This document shows, in pieces, positions 1 to 29,678 of a DNA stretch of 31,776 nt. The stretch is taken from assembly GCF_003334355.1 (NCBI RefSeq), contig NZ_QOWP01000037.1; one strand, written 5' to 3'. A program made the position numbers and the translations under genes. Positions within the stretch are counted from its first letter, which is position 1; the number at the start of each line of letters is the position of its first letter. This DNA comes from Escherichia coli (GTDB lineage Bacteria; Pseudomonadota; Gammaproteobacteria; Enterobacterales; Enterobacteriaceae). Under the pieces are notes generated by a model. That model had not been told where the DNA came from, searched no databases, and saw nothing but the letters and a program-made list of their open reading frames with translations.

Positions 1-221
1 TGCACCTACCCGTTTTATTACATAACTGAAGAAAGCATTGCATTCCGGGAGCGTCCATATATGTTACCTCGCGCCCGTACCCGATAGCCGAAAGGAATAA
101 GATGAGGGAACCGCGCCAGCGGCGATTTACCGCCGGGAGCCCGGGTTGCCAGGGTGGTGGCGATTGAGCCACCCTGGCACGTTCACCGGCTTGAGCGTTC
201 CATAGTAGCGAGGAACATCAA

Positions 222-443
222 GTGAACGGAACAGCCTTCGATCTTACATATTCAGAATATAATAGTGCCGCCGCTCGCGATGCTGATGGGATCTATCGCG
301 TCATGTATGTCGCAAAATTTGAAGAAGCGGTTTACGTATTGCATTGTTTTCAAAAGAAAACACAGACTACCAGTCAATCGAATATTGATTTAGCCAAACG
401 ACGCTATAAAGAACTTGTTCAGGAGCGGAAAAATGAAAATTGA
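222..443 (+). pseudogene. N-terminally truncated RelE/ParE-superfamily (HigB-like) toxin remnant
   Basis: 73-aa ORF with a GTG start at 222. The C-terminal part (GIYRVMYVAKFEEAVYVLHCFQKKTQTTSQSNIDLAKRRYKEL) resembles the conserved core of RelE/HigB-type toxins. An in-frame TGA at 192-194 prevents any longer N-terminus, so about 30-40 residues expected for this family are missing. Overlaps the downstream antitoxin start by 11 nt. Confidence 0.4.
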
Positions 444-723
444 AACCTTTGATAGTGTGTGGGATGCGGTGAGTGACACCCCTGAACAAGCGGAAAATAT
501 GCGGATCCGTGCCGAGCTTGTAACGATCATTAATAACTGGATTGAACAACAAGGGTTTAGCCAGGCTCAGGCAGCTTCTGCTTTAGGGGTCACTCAACCT
601 CGCATATCTGAACTTGCCAGAGGTAAGATCCAGATCTTTAGTATCGATAAATTGATCACCATGATGGCTCATGCAGGATTGCATATTCAACGTATTGAAA
701 TTCAATATCCACATGCTGCTTAG
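433..723 (+). CDS. XRE-family helix-turn-helix antitoxin (HigA-like)
   Basis: Track ORF 415..723; the likely start is the ATG at 433 (MKIETF...). The motif QAQAASALGVTQPRISELARGK is a typical XRE HTH. Toxin-upstream, antitoxin-downstream order with start/stop overlap is the HigBA-type arrangement. Confidence 0.6.
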   Translation: MKIETFDSVWDAVSDTPEQAENMRIRAELVTIINNWIEQQGFSQAQAASALGVTQPRISELARGKIQIFSIDKLITMMAHAGLHIQRIEIQYPHAA

Positions 724-775
724 TGCTATAAATACAGATGGCGACAAATTGACGCCGCCATCTGCATAACTTGTC

Positions 776-4282: not shown

Positions 4283-7200
4283 ATGAGCAAACAATCACAG
4301 CATGTATTAATTGCCCTGCCCCACCCGCTGCTTCACCTGGTCAGTTTAGGTTTAGTCTCGTTTATCTTTACCCTTTTCTCGCTTGAGCTTTCGCAGTTTG
4401 GCACCCAACTCGCCCCACTGTGGTTCCCGACGTCCATCATGATGGTGGCGTTTTATCGCCATGCCGGGCGCATGTGGCCGGGAATTGCGCTGAGCTGTTC
4501 GCTGGGAAATATCGCCGCATCCATCCTGCTTTTTTCCACCAGCTCGCTGAACATGACCTGGACGACCATCAATATTGTTGAAGCCGTGGTCGGGGCAGTG
4601 CTGCTACGTAAATTGCTGCCGTGGTATAACCCCTTGCAAAATCTGGCTGACTGGCTGCGTCTGGCACTCGGCAGCGCCATTGTTCCACCTCTGTTGGGGG
4701 GTGTTCTGGTTGTCCTGCTGACACCCGGAGACGATCCTCTCAGGGCATTTTTGATATGGGTACTGTCAGAATCCATCGGCGCTCTGGCACTGGTGCCGCT
4801 GGGATTGTTATTTAAACCGCACTATCTGCTGCGCCATCGCAACCCACGGTTGCTTTTTGAGTCGCTGCTCACGTTAGCCATCACACTGACGTTAAGCTGG
4901 CTTTCGATGCTGTATCTGCCGTGGCCTTTTACTTTCATTATTGTGCTGTTGATGTGGAGCGCCGTGCGCCTGCCACGAATGGAAGCCTTTTTGATCTTCC
5001 TTACCACGGTGATGATGGTGTCGCTGATGATGGCCGCGGATCCCTCCCTGCTTGCTACGCCGCGTACGTACCTGATGAGCCATATGCCGTGGCTACCGTT
5101 TTTGCTGATCCTGCTGCCCGCCAACATCATGACGATGGTGATGTATGCCTTTCGTGCGGAACGCAAACACATTTCCGAAAGCGAAACCCGTTTTCGAAAC
5201 GCGATGGAATATTCCGCCATCGGCATGGCATTAGTGGGCACCGAGGGACAATGGCTGCAATCCAACAAAGCACTCTGCCAGTTTCTCGGTTACAGTCAGG
5301 AAGAGCTGCGTGGACTCACCTTTCAGCAACTGACCTGGCCGGAGGATCTCAATAAAGATCTCCAACAGGTTGAAAAGCTGATAAGCGGTGAAATAAACAC
5401 CTATTCAATGGAAAAACGTTACTACAACCGCAATGGCGATGTTGTCTGGGCGTTGCTTGCCGTCTCTCTGGTGCGCCACACGGATGGCACGCCGCTCTAT
5501 TTTATCGCTCAGATTGAAGACATTAACGAGCTAAAACGCACCGAACAGGTCAATCAGCAACTGATGGAGCGCATCACTCTGGCTAACGAAGCGGGCGGGA
5601 TTGGCATCTGGGAGTGGGAGTTGAAGCCGAATATTTTTAGCTGGGATAAGCGGATGTTCGAGCTGTATGAAATTCCTCCGCATATCAAACCGAACTGGCA
5701 GGTGTGGTACGAGTGCGTGCTGCCGGAAGATCGCCAGCATGCCGAAAAAGTGATTCGTGATTCGTTGCAATCACGCTCGCCCTTTAAGCTGGAATTTCGC
5801 ATTGCTGTGAAAGATGGCATCCGCCATATCCGCGCCCTCGCCAACCGGGTACTGAATAAAGAAGGCGAAGTCGAACGCCTGCTCGGCATTAATATGGATA
5901 TGACTGAGGTTAAACAGCTTAACGAGGCATTGTTTCAGGAAAAAGAGCGCCTGCACATTACGCTTGATTCCATCGGTGAAGCCGTGGTCTGTATTGATAT
6001 GGCGATGAAAATTACCTTTATGAATCCGGTGGCGGAGAAGATGAGCGGCTGGACGCAGGAAGAAGCGTTAGGTGTTCCGCTCCTGACGGTGTTGCATATT
6101 ACTTTTGGCGACAACGGACCATTAATGGAGAACATTTACAGTGCCGACACCTCACGTTCCGCGATCGAGCAAGATGTGGTGTTGCACTGTCGGAGCGGCG
6201 GCAGTTACGACGTGCATTACAGTATTACGCCGTTAAGTACTCTGGACGGCAGCAATATTGGTTCGGTTCTGGTGATTCAGGACGTTACCGAATCACGCAA
6301 AATGCTGCGCCAGCTGAGCTACAGCGCCTCCCATGATGCACTGACGCATCTCGCCAACCGCGCCAGTTTTGAGAAACAACTGCGTATCCTGCTGCAAACG
6401 GTAAACAGTACACATCAGCGACATGCCCTGGTGTTTATCGATCTTGATCGCTTTAAAGCGGTGAATGACAGCGCCGGGCATGCGGCGGGTGACGCTTTGC
6501 TGCGCGAACTGGCGTCGTTAATGCTGAGTATGCTGCGTTCCAGCGACGTGCTGGCGCGACTCGGTGGGGATGAATTTGGTCTGCTGCTACCAGACTGTAA
6601 TGTTGAAAGCGCGCGTTTTATCGCTACACGCATTATCAGTGCCGTGAATGACTATCACTTTATATGGGAAGGCCGTGTGCATCGGGTAGGTGCCAGTGCC
6701 GGGATTACCTTGATTGATGACAACAATCATCAGGCGGCAGAAGTGATGTTGCAGGCTGATATCGCCTGTTATGCCTCCAAAAATGGTGGCCGGGGCCGGG
6801 TGACGGTTTACGAACCGCAGCAAGCTGCCGCACATAGCGAACGGGCGGCGATGTCGCTTGATGAACAGTGGCGGATGATTAAAGAGAATCAGTTGATGAT
6901 GCTCGCCCACGGTGTCGCTTCGCCACGGATCCCGGAAGCGCGTAATTTGTGGCTGATTTCACTTAAGCTCTGGAGTTGCGAAGGCGAGATTATTGATGAA
7001 CAAACATTTCGTCGTAGCTTCAGCGATCCGGCGCTTAGCCATGCTCTTGACCGCCGGGTATTCCACGAATTTTTCCAGCAGGCCGCAAAAGCGGTTGCCA
7101 GTAAAGGCATAAGCATCTCCCTCCCCCTTTCCGTTGCCGGTTTGAGTAGCGCCACGCTGGTGAATGATCTGCTTGAGCAGCTGGAAAATAGCCCTCTACC

Positions 7201-7600
7201 ACCACGGTTATTACATCTGATTATTCCGGCTGAAGCGATTTTAGATCACGCAGAAAGCGTGCAAAAACTGCGGCTGGCGGGATGTCGGATAGTGCTCAGC
7301 CAGGTGGGCCGCGATCTGCAAATCTTCAACTCGCTGAAAGCGAATATGGCAGATTACCTGCTACTTGATGGTGAGTTATGCGCCAACGTGCAGGGTAATT
7401 TGATGGATGAGATGCTGATTACGATTATTCAGGGGCACGCTCAGCGACTCGGGATGAAAACCATCGCCGGGCCAGTCGTTTTACCCTTAGTGATGGATAC
7501 GCTTTCTGGCATCGGCGTCGATCTGATTTATGGTGAGGTGATTGCCGATGCCCAACCGCTGGATTTGCTGGTGAATAGTAGTTATTTCGCGATTAACTGA
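4283..7600 (+). CDS. dgcE: diguanylate cyclase DgcE (MASE1-PAS-PAS-PAS-GGDEF-degenerate EAL)
   Basis: 1105-aa ORF with a hydrophobic N-terminal membrane domain, PAS-like repeats and an intact GGDEF motif (RLGGDEFGLLLPD). The C-terminal EAL-like region lacks the canonical EAL, DDFGTG and EGVE signatures. Confidence 0.9.
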   Translation: MSKQSQHVLIALPHPLLHLVSLGLVSFIFTLFSLELSQFGTQLAPLWFPTSIMMVAFYRHAGRMWPGIALSCSLGNIAASILLFSTSSLNMTWTTINIVEAVVGAVLLRKLLPWYNPLQNLADWLRLALGSAIVPPLLGGVLVVLLTPGDDPLRAFLIWVLSESIGALALVPLGLLFKPHYLLRHRNPRLLFESLLTLAITLTLSWLSMLYLPWPFTFIIVLLMWSAVRLPRMEAFLIFLTTVMMVSLMMAADPSLLATPRTYLMSHMPWLPFLLILLPANIMTMVMYAFRAERKHISESETRFRNAMEYSAIGMALVGTEGQWLQSNKALCQFLGYSQEELRGLTFQQLTWPEDLNKDLQQVEKLISGEINTYSMEKRYYNRNGDVVWALLAVSLVRHTDGTPLYFIAQIEDINELKRTEQVNQQLMERITLANEAGGIGIWEWELKPNIFSWDKRMFELYEIPPHIKPNWQVWYECVLPEDRQHAEKVIRDSLQSRSPFKLEFRIAVKDGIRHIRALANRVLNKEGEVERLLGINMDMTEVKQLNEALFQEKERLHITLDSIGEAVVCIDMAMKITFMNPVAEKMSGWTQEEALGVPLLTVLHITFGDNGPLMENIYSADTSRSAIEQDVVLHCRSGGSYDVHYSITPLSTLDGSNIGSVLVIQDVTESRKMLRQLSYSASHDALTHLANRASFEKQLRILLQTVNSTHQRHALVFIDLDRFKAVNDSAGHAAGDALLRELASLMLSMLRSSDVLARLGGDEFGLLLPDCNVESARFIATRIISAVNDYHFIWEGRVHRVGASAGITLIDDNNHQAAEVMLQADIACYASKNGGRGRVTVYEPQQAAAHSERAAMSLDEQWRMIKENQLMMLAHGVASPRIPEARNLWLISLKLWSCEGEIIDEQTFRRSFSDPALSHALDRRVFHEFFQQAAKAVASKGISISLPLSVAGLSSATLVNDLLEQLENSPLPPRLLHLIIPAEAILDHAESVQKLRLAGCRIVLSQVGRDLQIFNSLKANMADYLLLDGELCANVQGNLMDEMLITIIQGHAQRLGMKTIAGPVVLPLVMDTLSGIGVDLIYGEVIADAQPLDLLVNSSYFAIN

Positions 7601-7616
7601 GGCGTGCTTCCCCATC

Positions 7617-7653
7617 GCCTGATGCGACGCTAACGCGTCTTATCATGCCTACA
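7617..7653. repeat. REP (repetitive extragenic palindromic) element
   Basis: gcctgatgcgacgctaacgcgtcttatcatgcctaca matches the enterobacterial REP consensus family (GCCTGATGCGACGCT...CGTCTTATCAGGCCTAC). Confidence 0.75.
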
Positions 7654-7668
7654 AATCGCTCATTCCCC

Positions 7669-7701
7669 AGGCCGGATAAGGCGCTCGCACCGCATCCGGC
7701 G
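7669..7701. repeat. REP element, inverted partner (BIME-like pair with 7617..7653)
   Basis: aggccggataaggcgctcgcaccgcatccggcg is a REP in opposite orientation; lies between the dgcE stop and the alkA stop. Confidence 0.7.
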
Positions 7702-7708
7702 ACCAACG

Positions 7709-8557
7709 TCATGCTTCGTCTGGTTGCCAGCCTTCCGTATACCAGATATGCAACAGCGCATAAGAACGCCAGGGCTTCCAGCGCTCGGCATAACGGCGGA
7801 TTTGCGCCGGTGTCATTCCCGGAAATCGCTGTTTAATCAGATAATCATCCGGCAGGAAAACATCTTTCGCCTGCCAGCCACGCAAAGCAAAATAATTCGC
7901 CGTCCAGCGCCCGATACCCGGAAAAGTTTGCAGCGTTTTCATCGCCTGCTCCACATCGCCCGGTATTGTCATTGGTAAGGTGCCCTCCAGCGCCGCATTT
8001 GCCAGATGAATCAGCGCCTCTGCCCGTTTCAACGGCATACCTAACGCTTTTAATGCCTGCGGGTCTGCTGCTGCCAGCCGCTGAGGCGTCGGGAAGCAGA
8101 TATACTCCGGAAAATCATCCAGCCGTTCGCCATAAAGCTGTGCCACTCTGGCGGTCAATTTTGCCGCCATCGCCACGCTCACCAGTTGGCCTAAAATCGC
8201 CCGCACGCCCTGCTCAAAAGCATCAACACAGCCGGGTAAACGCAATCCGGGCCGCGCCGCGCCTAACCTGCCCAACGCACCGTTAACAATTTGTGGGTTA
8301 CATTGCAGATCAAACAGGCGGCTCATTTTCGCCAGACACTCTGCGGCAACAGGTTCTAAACCTGCACTTAAATTTATGTGCAGAGTATGGCGGGCTATAT
8401 CCGGAATAGCAGTCACCACGCCGCGATATTCGCCCACCGCCAGACTACGGGCATAATAACTGTCCGCGACCGTTTCCACACTGCTCACCGCACGGGCGGC
8501 GAGAAATCCCAACATCCACGACCAGTCATACGGCGGCTGCCAGTTCAGGGTATACAT
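7709..8557 (-). CDS. alkA: DNA-3-methyladenine glycosylase II
   Basis: 282-aa ORF (MYTLNWQPPYDWSWMLGFLAARAVSSVETV...) with a C-terminal HhH-GPD region (GIGRWTANYFALRG...D). Confidence 0.9.
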   Translation of the reverse strand: MYTLNWQPPYDWSWMLGFLAARAVSSVETVADSYYARSLAVGEYRGVVTAIPDIARHTLHINLSAGLEPVAAECLAKMSRLFDLQCNPQIVNGALGRLGAARPGLRLPGCVDAFEQGVRAILGQLVSVAMAAKLTARVAQLYGERLDDFPEYICFPTPQRLAAADPQALKALGMPLKRAEALIHLANAALEGTLPMTIPGDVEQAMKTLQTFPGIGRWTANYFALRGWQAKDVFLPDDYLIKQRFPGMTPAQIRRYAERWKPWRSYALLHIWYTEGWQPDEA

Positions 8558-25606: not shown

Positions 25607-25796
25607 TTTTAGCGACATTATTTTGTTAGCCGGAGATGGCGTTCAGACCAGATCCGGCAACATTATCCCACGCATGGTCAGCAAACTGACATTATCTCTC
25701 CGCCCTGGCAGGCATCAGAAAATCGCTCATACTTTAATCGGTAAACAGCACCTTTAGATGCTGTTTTCGATACACAATTTCAATCAAGGAGTCATT

Positions 25797-27714: not shown

Positions 27715-27721
27715 CCGTTTC

Positions 27722-27808
27722 GCTGAAAAACATAACCCATAAAATGCTAGCTGTACCAGGAACCACCTCCTTAGCCTGTGTAATCTCCCTTACACGGGCT
27801 TATTTTTT
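27722..27808 (+). ncRNA. cyaR: CyaR (RyeE) Hfq-dependent sRNA
   Basis: gctgaaaaacataacccataaaatgctagctgtaccaggaaccacctcctta...cttacacgggcttatttttt matches the CyaR sequence as I recall it, including the terminal hairpin plus U-tract. Confidence 0.85.
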
Positions 27809-27966
27809 ATGCATAAGCCCTATCTCTGGTCACCGTCTTCCATTGACCACATCGATAGAATCCTCCTTCATAGCACGATGCCTTTCACTTATCGGCATCG
27901 TGCTCCCACAGGTTCCGGCTACGCACAGCCAGAACGCGCATATTTGACGCTTACCAAAAAATATTC

Positions 27967-28697: not shown

Positions 28698-29597
28698 ATG
28701 GCAGAATTTCCCGCCAGCTTACTGATTCTTAATGGCAAAAGTACTGACAATCTACCCTTGCGCGAAGCAATTATGCTGTTGCGTGAGGAAGGAATGACGA
28801 TCCATGTGCGGGTCACCTGGGAGAAAGGCGATGCCGCACGATATGTAGAGGAGGCCCGGAAGTTGGGCGTCGCAACGGTGATTGCCGGTGGTGGAGATGG
28901 CACCATTAATGAAGTTTCTACGGCGTTGATTCAGTGTGAGGGGGATGACATACCCGCGCTGGGAATTTTGCCATTAGGAACTGCCAATGATTTTGCCACC
29001 AGTGTAGGGATTCCTGAGGCACTGGATAAGGCGCTGAAACTGGCAATTGCCGGTAACGCCATTGCGATAGATATGGCGCAGGTCAACAAACAAACCTGTT
29101 TTATTAATATGGCGACAGGCGGATTTGGGACGCGTATTACCACAGAAACGCCGGAAAAATTAAAAGCCGCGCTGGGTGGCGTCTCTTACATCATTCATGG
29201 CTTAATGCGCATGGATACTCTGCAACCAGACCGTTGTGAAATCCGCGGTGAAAACTTTCACTGGCAAGGTGACGCCCTGGTCATTGGTATTGGTAACGGG
29301 CGTCAGGCCGGTGGCGGTCAGCAATTGTGTCCGAACGCGTTAATTAACGATGGCTTGCTGCAACTGCGCATTTTTACCGGCGATGAAATTCTTCCAGCTC
29401 TCGTATCAACCTTAAAATCTGACGAAGATAACCCGAATATTATCGAAGGCGCTTCGTCGTGGTTTGATATACAAGCCCCACACGAAATCACTTTTAATCT
29501 TGATGGCGAACCGTTGAGTGGGCAAAACTTCCATATTGAAATACTTCCGGCGGCGTTGCGTTGTCGATTACCACCAGATTGTCCATTATTGCGTTAA
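28698..29597 (+). CDS. yegS: lipid kinase YegS (DAG-kinase-like fold)
   Basis: 299-aa ORF with the GGDG motif ([13 protein letters not shown]). Confidence 0.9.
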
Positions 29598-29634
29598 TCA
29601 AACTATTCTCTCTTGAACCAGGGAGAATCCGTAA

Positions 29635-29670
29635 TGCCGGATGCGGTGTAAACACCTTATCCGGCATACA
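29635..29670. repeat. REP element
   Basis: tgccggatgcggtgtaaacaccttatccggcataca is a typical REP palindrome between the convergent yegS and gatR. Confidence 0.75.
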
Positions 29671-29678
29671 GAACAATA

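Follow-up and report, generated by a model that had tools for sequence, protein, structure and literature searches.

A minimal Y/Z2 BIME and a single Y-type REP between convergent genes in an Escherichia coli chromosome segment

The stretch of DNA analysed here, referred to as the window, is a 31.8 kb segment of the chromosome of a non-K-12 strain of Escherichia coli. An alignment with MG1655 (2137500-2172000) shows it to be colinear over the region asmA-gatD, where the strains differ in several places, and the coordinate offset to MG1655 is 2138983 at dgcE/alkA and 2140014 at yegS/gatR. Two pairs of genes in the window, dgcE/alkA and yegS/gatR, face each other across short gaps that carry REP units (Table 1). 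The gene coordinates and the MG1655 alignment agree with the gene names and the convergent layout that an earlier note on this DNA had assigned to both pairs. All three REP units are extragenic, as they lie between the stop codons, in 7601-7708 and 29598-29678, at distances of 16 nt to the dgcE stop codon, 8 nt to that of alkA, 38 nt to that of yegS and 9 nt to that of gatR. Both intergenic regions are base-identical to MG1655, and 701 nt spanning the dgcE/alkA site show 100% identity to many E. coli chromosomes, MG1655 derivatives included. The gatR gene is whole in the window, whereas in MG1655 it is interrupted by IS3E, 478 bp from the REP element that is catalogued there as REP150.

Table 1. 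Genes, REP units and neighbouring elements at the two convergent gaps, in window coordinates, and alleles of the dgcE/alkA gap
Feature	Position	Strand	Description
dgcE	4283-7600	+	diguanylate cyclase; faces alkA
Z2-type REP	7617-7652	+	GCCTGATGCGACGCTAACGCGTCTTATCATGCCTAC; degenerate REP pattern, 1 mismatch
BIME linker	7653-7666		tail-to-tail, 14 nt, AAATCGCTCATTCC; similar short linkers recur in BIMEs elsewhere
Y-type REP, inverted	7667-7700	-	core 7671-7700 fits the Y pattern GCCGGATGCGGYGNNNNCRCCTTATCCGGC with 0 mismatches
Entire Z2-linker-Y doublet	7615-7702		alternative single long hairpin on either transcript
alkA	7709-8557	-	faces dgcE
yegS	28698-29597	+	faces gatR
Non-REP hairpin	29605-29628		9-bp stem, ATTCTCTCT/AGGGAGAAT; 7 nt past the yegS stop, upstream of the REP
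Single Y-type REP	29636-29669	+	core 29636-29665 fits GCCGGATGCGGYGNNNNCRCCTTATCCGGC with 0 mismatches
Equivalent of P_R10_1751	29660-29717	+	shares 10 nt with the 3′ end of REP150, on the yegS strand
gatR	29679-30458	-	faces yegS; 259 aa, intact
Window/K-12 allele	dgcE/alkA gap		913 records at ≥99%
3-nt deletion in the Y unit	dgcE/alkA gap		strain U14A
8-nt duplication of CTACAAAT	dgcE/alkA gap		strain HCP6S3_I1; 251 records at ≥99%
9-nt deletion, one arm of the Y unit gone	dgcE/alkA gap		strain ATCC 11303; 1,232 records at ≥99%

The comparison with MG1655 also brought up differences away from the two gaps. At the left end, window positions 1-775 hold, upstream of asmA, a gene for an HTH antitoxin (415-723, +) and the truncated pseudogene of a RelE/ParE toxin. 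K-12 has no more than about 63 bp here, and just 117 of 5,426 complete E. coli genomes contain the 800-nt stretch in full. At 11950-12004 the window has neither yegJ nor the REP148 hairpin (about 786 bp in MG1655), and the yegI ORF (10055-12004) overlaps the pphC ORF (11992-12753). The supplementary table entry for REP148 places this element between yegJ and pphC in MG1655 (Harris et al., 2026), and it is missing from the window because yegJ is absent. Three tandem SIB RNA/Ibs type I toxin-antitoxin repeats lie at 13556-14360 (RF00113; 143.5, 142.9 and 140.1 bits), where MG1655 has two, sibA and sibB. The CyaR sRNA was located by Rfam at 27720-27805 (100.7 bits), and the cryptic P2 remnant PR-X of K-12 (ogrK and yegZ, about 600 bp), which lies 3′ of cyaR in MG1655, is missing from the window (27720-27816).

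The gap between dgcE and alkA had been described as holding two REPs in inverted orientation, and pattern and consensus matches at 7617-7652 and 7667-7700 bear this out. For the Z2 unit, 0.00 pattern matches are expected by chance (100 shuffles). By hand alignment it agrees at 34 of 37 positions with the published Z2 unit flanking the RAYT gene yafM (GTAGGcatGATAAGaCGcgcCAgCGtCGCATCaGGCA), and it matches a Z2 consensus at 33 of 36 positions, as against 28 of 36 for Z1. The unit is predicted to form a hairpin of -15.1 kcal/mol (z = -5.2), and its GTAG foot is intact, with CTAC at 7649-7652 and the GTAG-hairpin on the minus strand. The core of the facing Y unit (7671-7700) is likewise expected 0.00 times by chance; over its full length the unit agrees with the published Y consensus GCCGGATGCGGCGTGAACGCCTTATCCGGCCTAC at 29 of 34 positions and folds with -19.7 kcal/mol, and its foot reads CCAG (7667-7670) in place of GTAG. 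Folded as one, the doublet pairs inverted-repeat arms at 7615-7636 and 7681-7702 and reaches a minimum free energy of -41.3 kcal/mol on the + strand (z = -4.1) and of -49.2 kcal/mol on the - strand (z = -3.2). In other strains, BIMEs 3′ of proX, 3′ of ybbJ and in the ubiG/yfaL gap can be aligned with the complete Z2-linker-Y module. Since it aligns end to end at three unrelated loci, we regard it as one copy of a composite repeat and not as two chance palindromes. A Z2 unit on the + strand, a 14-nt linker and a Y unit on the - strand make up the arrangement of a BIME, and on these sequence features the dgcE/alkA element is a minimal BIME of Y/Z2 (BIME-2) composition, a REPIN-like doublet. Judging by the numbering of its neighbours, it is probably the element called REP147 in K-12.

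Between yegS and gatR the earlier note had placed a single REP, and this unit too was recovered, with a Y pattern free of mismatches; the coordinates given before for the two sites (7617-7701 and 29635-29670) were accurate. Its core is expected 0.00 times by chance, it agrees with the published Y consensus at 30 of 34 positions, and its predicted hairpin has -22.4 / -20.9 kcal/mol (z about -5.5). GTAT, read as the reverse complement of 29666-29669, replaces the GTAG foot. The unit is already catalogued: the supplementary table of Harris et al. (2026) has, among its entries for this region, REP150 at MG1655 2169651-2169684, assigned to gatR/yegS and labelled 'Convergent'. These coordinates correspond to window 29637-29670, and REP150 of MG1655 and the window singlet have the same sequence at equivalent coordinates, with no difference within the element. 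The MG1655 RefSeq annotation has no REP features in the corresponding region. A second, non-REP hairpin lies between the yegS stop and the REP. It is part of a -32.7 kcal/mol fold of the yegS/gatR intergenic RNA, and has no T-run; about 93% of E. coli genomes have kept it along with the REP.

The window holds exactly these three canonical REP units, and none would be expected by chance. A head-plus-tail half-site scan (Hamming distance) of the whole 31.8 kb found no further canonical REP. When the full 34-nt Y consensus was used with up to 3 mismatches there was no match in the window, because the two Y units show 4-5 deviations from it. The three units are imperfect palindromes of 34-36 nt, each with an internal loop of 1x1 or 2x2 and a folding energy of -15 to -22 kcal/mol. 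The units share the internal mismatch of the E. coli REP or palindromic units described by Stern, Higgins, Gilson and Hofnung, and their identity to published Y and Z2 sequences is 85-92%. Alignment to such published units had been named beforehand as the refuting test, and all three units align. They differ from these E. coli units in the GTAG foot, as the tetranucleotide is mutated in both window Y units, to CCAG and to GTAT. The word 'canonical' in the earlier description thus holds for the hairpin bodies but not for the feet of the two Y units.

REPs number about 600 units in E. coli and are its longest-known and most abundant repeats. The literature lists 355 annotated E. coli REP elements, which consist of 1-12 units of the Y, Z1 and Z2 types. 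Convergent gene pairs flank about 60% of all E. coli REPs, and of the 704 gaps between such genes 207 (about 30%) contain a REP. The dgcE/alkA element used as a query matched every one of the 5,426 complete E. coli genomes; the median was at least 40 places per genome, and 5,076 records had at least 40. With the singlet region as the query the median was 28 places per genome. By pattern, alignment and copy number, both sites are ordinary REP/BIME copies of a kind already known. REPs in the window are not confined to the convergent gene ends at which the earlier note had put them, since a further element lies between genes of the same orientation; the description holds for the two sites themselves, but REP149, between the co-oriented baeR and yegP, was overlooked. 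REP149 appears among the entries of the supplementary table of Harris et al. (2026) at MG1655 2165018-2165097, which is window 25626-25705. Its window equivalent is 100% identical to MG1655 and includes a hairpin of degenerate, Y-like sequence (GCCGGAGATGGCGTTCAGACCAGATCCGGC, -17.6 kcal/mol), which resembles the Y core at about 70% by eye and escaped the consensus scans.

We compared the dgcE/alkA element with the better-known arrangements of REP units. With BIME-2 and REPIN-like doublets it shares the inverted Y and Z2 units and the short, recurring linker. However, BIME-2 elements have several tandem units, whereas the half-site scan found a single Y/Z2 pair here, so that this is not a typical BIME-2; in many strains its Y arm also shows decay. 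Nor is it a BIME-1/RIP: BIME-1 and RIP-RIB elements combine Y with Z1 and have an IHF-binding linker, whereas the dgcE/alkA element has Z2 and a 14-nt linker, and the IHF consensus WATCAANNNNTTR is absent from both regions, the linker included. A REPtron, in which REPs flank a RAYT/TnpA-REP gene, was also considered and set aside, as no yafM lies adjacent in the window. Rfam gave no family at threshold at either REP site. Its naRNA4 model (RF02564) scored 22-28 bits (best 27.6) against a gathering score of 59.5; REP325/naRNA4 contains the same Z2 and Y hairpin pair, but REP325 has 12 units and the dgcE/alkA element two.

The link of these units to a transposase is, according to the literature, one in trans: the REP family is tied to a REP-associated transposase (yafM/TnpA-REP), whose single-copy gene is found at another place in the genome, flanked by its own BIMEs. 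No transposase gene was found in the window, all parts of which correspond to annotated genes, and the earlier remark that none is associated with the REPs is true in this local sense. The E. coli TnpA-REP has been reported to tolerate no mutation of GTAG and to require the bulge of the hairpin. GTAG is present in the Z2 unit and absent from two of the three units, and the two Y units that have lost it would therefore no longer be TnpA-REP substrates. Their CCAG and GTAT feet would fit decayed copies, which is still compatible with membership in the family. We read the REPs at the two sites as non-autonomous relics of dispersal by this transposase.

Being palindromic and lying between convergent genes, the units provide each of the two facing mRNAs with a stable 3′-terminal hairpin. 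Terminator scans reported no intrinsic terminator on either strand in 7400-7900 or 29400-29900, because no T-run follows the stems, and the REPs are consequently the only strong 3′ structures at the two sites. This speaks against reading them as bidirectional intrinsic (Rho-independent) terminators, which is extremely improbable: the hairpins are GC-rich and lie between convergent genes, and a few REPs are known to coincide with such terminators, but neither locus has a terminator-like site on either strand and read-through on the dgcE strand is sensitive to bicyclomycin.

The sensitivity to bicyclomycin comes from data on MG1655, in which Adams et al. (2021) list in their Supplementary file 2 a Rho termination region on the + strand with its best position at 2146686 (Rho score 6.8, significance 7.7e-7). 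Reads in the 800 nt upstream and downstream of this position were 43 and 8 in untreated cells, and 56 and 71 with bicyclomycin. The position corresponds to window 7703 (+), 2-3 nt past the BIME and on the dgcE strand; the Rho score is computed from 800-nt coverage windows and is not precise to the single nucleotide, so that the coincidence with the BIME is good to a few nucleotides at best. At the other gap, an entry of the supplementary table of Harris et al. (2026) gives an in vitro Rho site, P_R10_1751, at MG1655 2169674-2169731 (+), which in the window reaches into the end of the singlet (Table 1). Adams et al. (2021) also give curated lists of Term-seq 3′ ends for three growth conditions, and these contain no dominant 3′ end in MG1655 2146584-2146699 or 2169600-2169699. 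This counts against the function suggested in the earlier note, which had named Term-seq profiles as a check, although low expression could explain why such ends are missing from both gaps.

In a general model from the literature, transcripts ended by Rho are trimmed back to a protective stem-loop without a U-tract, and REP325 has been described both as a partly Rho-dependent terminator and as an mRNA stabiliser. On this model, Rho would end transcription at or just past the hairpin, as the MG1655 data suggest for the dgcE side and the in vitro site for the yegS side. The hairpin would then set the 3′ boundary and block 3′-to-5′ exonucleases, as we infer from what is known of the REP family. 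By analogy with other REPs a role in mRNA stabilisation is plausible at both loci. Terminal REPs, according to the literature, do not lengthen mRNA half-lives genome-wide, and convergent pairs with REPs are expressed more highly than controls; if the REPs affect expression, we expect the effect to be modest and to depend on context. The earlier proposal that the units act as mRNA-stabilising 3′ structures is accordingly upheld in part: the stable hairpins, the lack of an intrinsic terminator and the Rho data agree with it, but the missing dominant Term-seq ends, the missing half-life effect and the deletions in the Y unit do not. A Rho-dependent 3′ boundary combined with a hairpin fits the data better than a simple stabiliser. 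Taking the results together, we read the two sites as ordinary members of the REP family, a minimal BIME and a singlet, which are transposase relics and would form a hairpin boundary at Rho-ended 3′ ends, and give this joint reading a probability of about 0.88.

How far the hairpins matter at these loci can be gauged from their variation among strains. The dgcE/alkA gap has at least four alleles, judged from an alignment of four (Table 1), whose record numbers are rough counts by identity band and not a census; the Z2 unit is intact in all four. In the fold of the 9-nt-deletion allele the Y hairpin is lost and the Z2 hairpin retained. Roughly one in every three to four complete E. coli genomes has this deletion, and that at least about 1,200 genomes have lost the alkA-side hairpin speaks against its being under strong selection. 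The yegS/gatR gap, by comparison, keeps the same length and an identity of 95% or more in about 5,070 of the 5,426 genomes. Some 6% of the complete E. coli genomes lose the homology exactly at the yegS stop codon, and a cluster with a HAD hydrolase and an RbtT/DalT transporter takes the place of the gat side. The substituted 3′ gap of yegS, as seen in E. coli EC4 (positions 1649-1721 of the stretch examined), is 73 nt long and has no REP; it contains a different inverted repeat, GCGCAGAAG...CTTCTGCGC.

This variation bears on the alternative that the REPs are selfish or neutral relics and nothing more, tolerated in convergent 3′ gaps without any function specific to the locus. We consider this rather unlikely, although a good deal of the evidence is in line with it. 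The alkA-side Y unit is polymorphic, by two deletions and a duplication, and the allele that loses the hairpin is common; two of the three units have lost the GTAG that TnpA-REP does not do without; the cluster that replaces the gat side in some genomes leaves yegS without a REP; and REPs have no genome-wide effect on half-life. The constancy of the singlet gap, the intact Z2 unit in all alleles examined, the Rho-dependent boundary at the edge of the BIME and the higher expression of REP-bearing convergent pairs are, however, at odds with relics alone.

Another alternative places the effect in translation. According to the rule of Liang, Rudd and Deutscher (2015), in the form in which PMC12306157 summarises it, a stop-proximal REP acts as a brake, and 260 of 496 REPs satisfy this rule; a REP hairpin within fewer than 16 nt of a stop codon would stall the terminating ribosome and lower the yield of the upstream protein. 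The gaps of 8 nt at alkA and 9 nt at gatR agree with such a brake, that of 16 nt at dgcE is marginal, and yegS, at 38 nt, is excluded. Yet the gatR transcript carries the inverted (iREP) strand of the hairpin and the alkA-proximal hairpin is deleted in many strains, and we hold a translational brake to be unlikely at these sites. Its more specific form, in which the stop-proximal Y REPs of alkA and gatR act as brakes and the alkA-side alleles alter the output of AlkA and DgcE, is very doubtful. If true, it would mean heritable differences between strains in AlkA and DgcE output with coding and promoter sequences unchanged.

A role at the level of DNA is quite improbable as well. In that case DNA gyrase would act at the Y/Z2 pair and relieve the positive supercoils that build up between the converging transcription units, and both the convergent location and the Y and Z2 composition point that way, the latter being that of BIME-2, a strong gyrase binder as reported. 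But a single Y/Z2 pair stands here against the several tandem units of BIME-2, and in a recent study the model element REP325 showed no role in organising the chromosome.

The preferred reading, of ordinary REP copies at a Rho-dependent 3′ boundary, gives these sites little importance by themselves, as they are commonplace repeats, identical to those of the reference strain, where REP150 has been catalogued. Their use lies in an anatomy that is now fixed exactly, with the Z2 and Y types, the orientation, the loss of GTAG and the distances to the stop codons, and in a dgcE-side element that is linked to a published Rho-dependent boundary. The alkA-side unit is naturally polymorphic, and its alleles could be used as a ready-made test of how REPs function.
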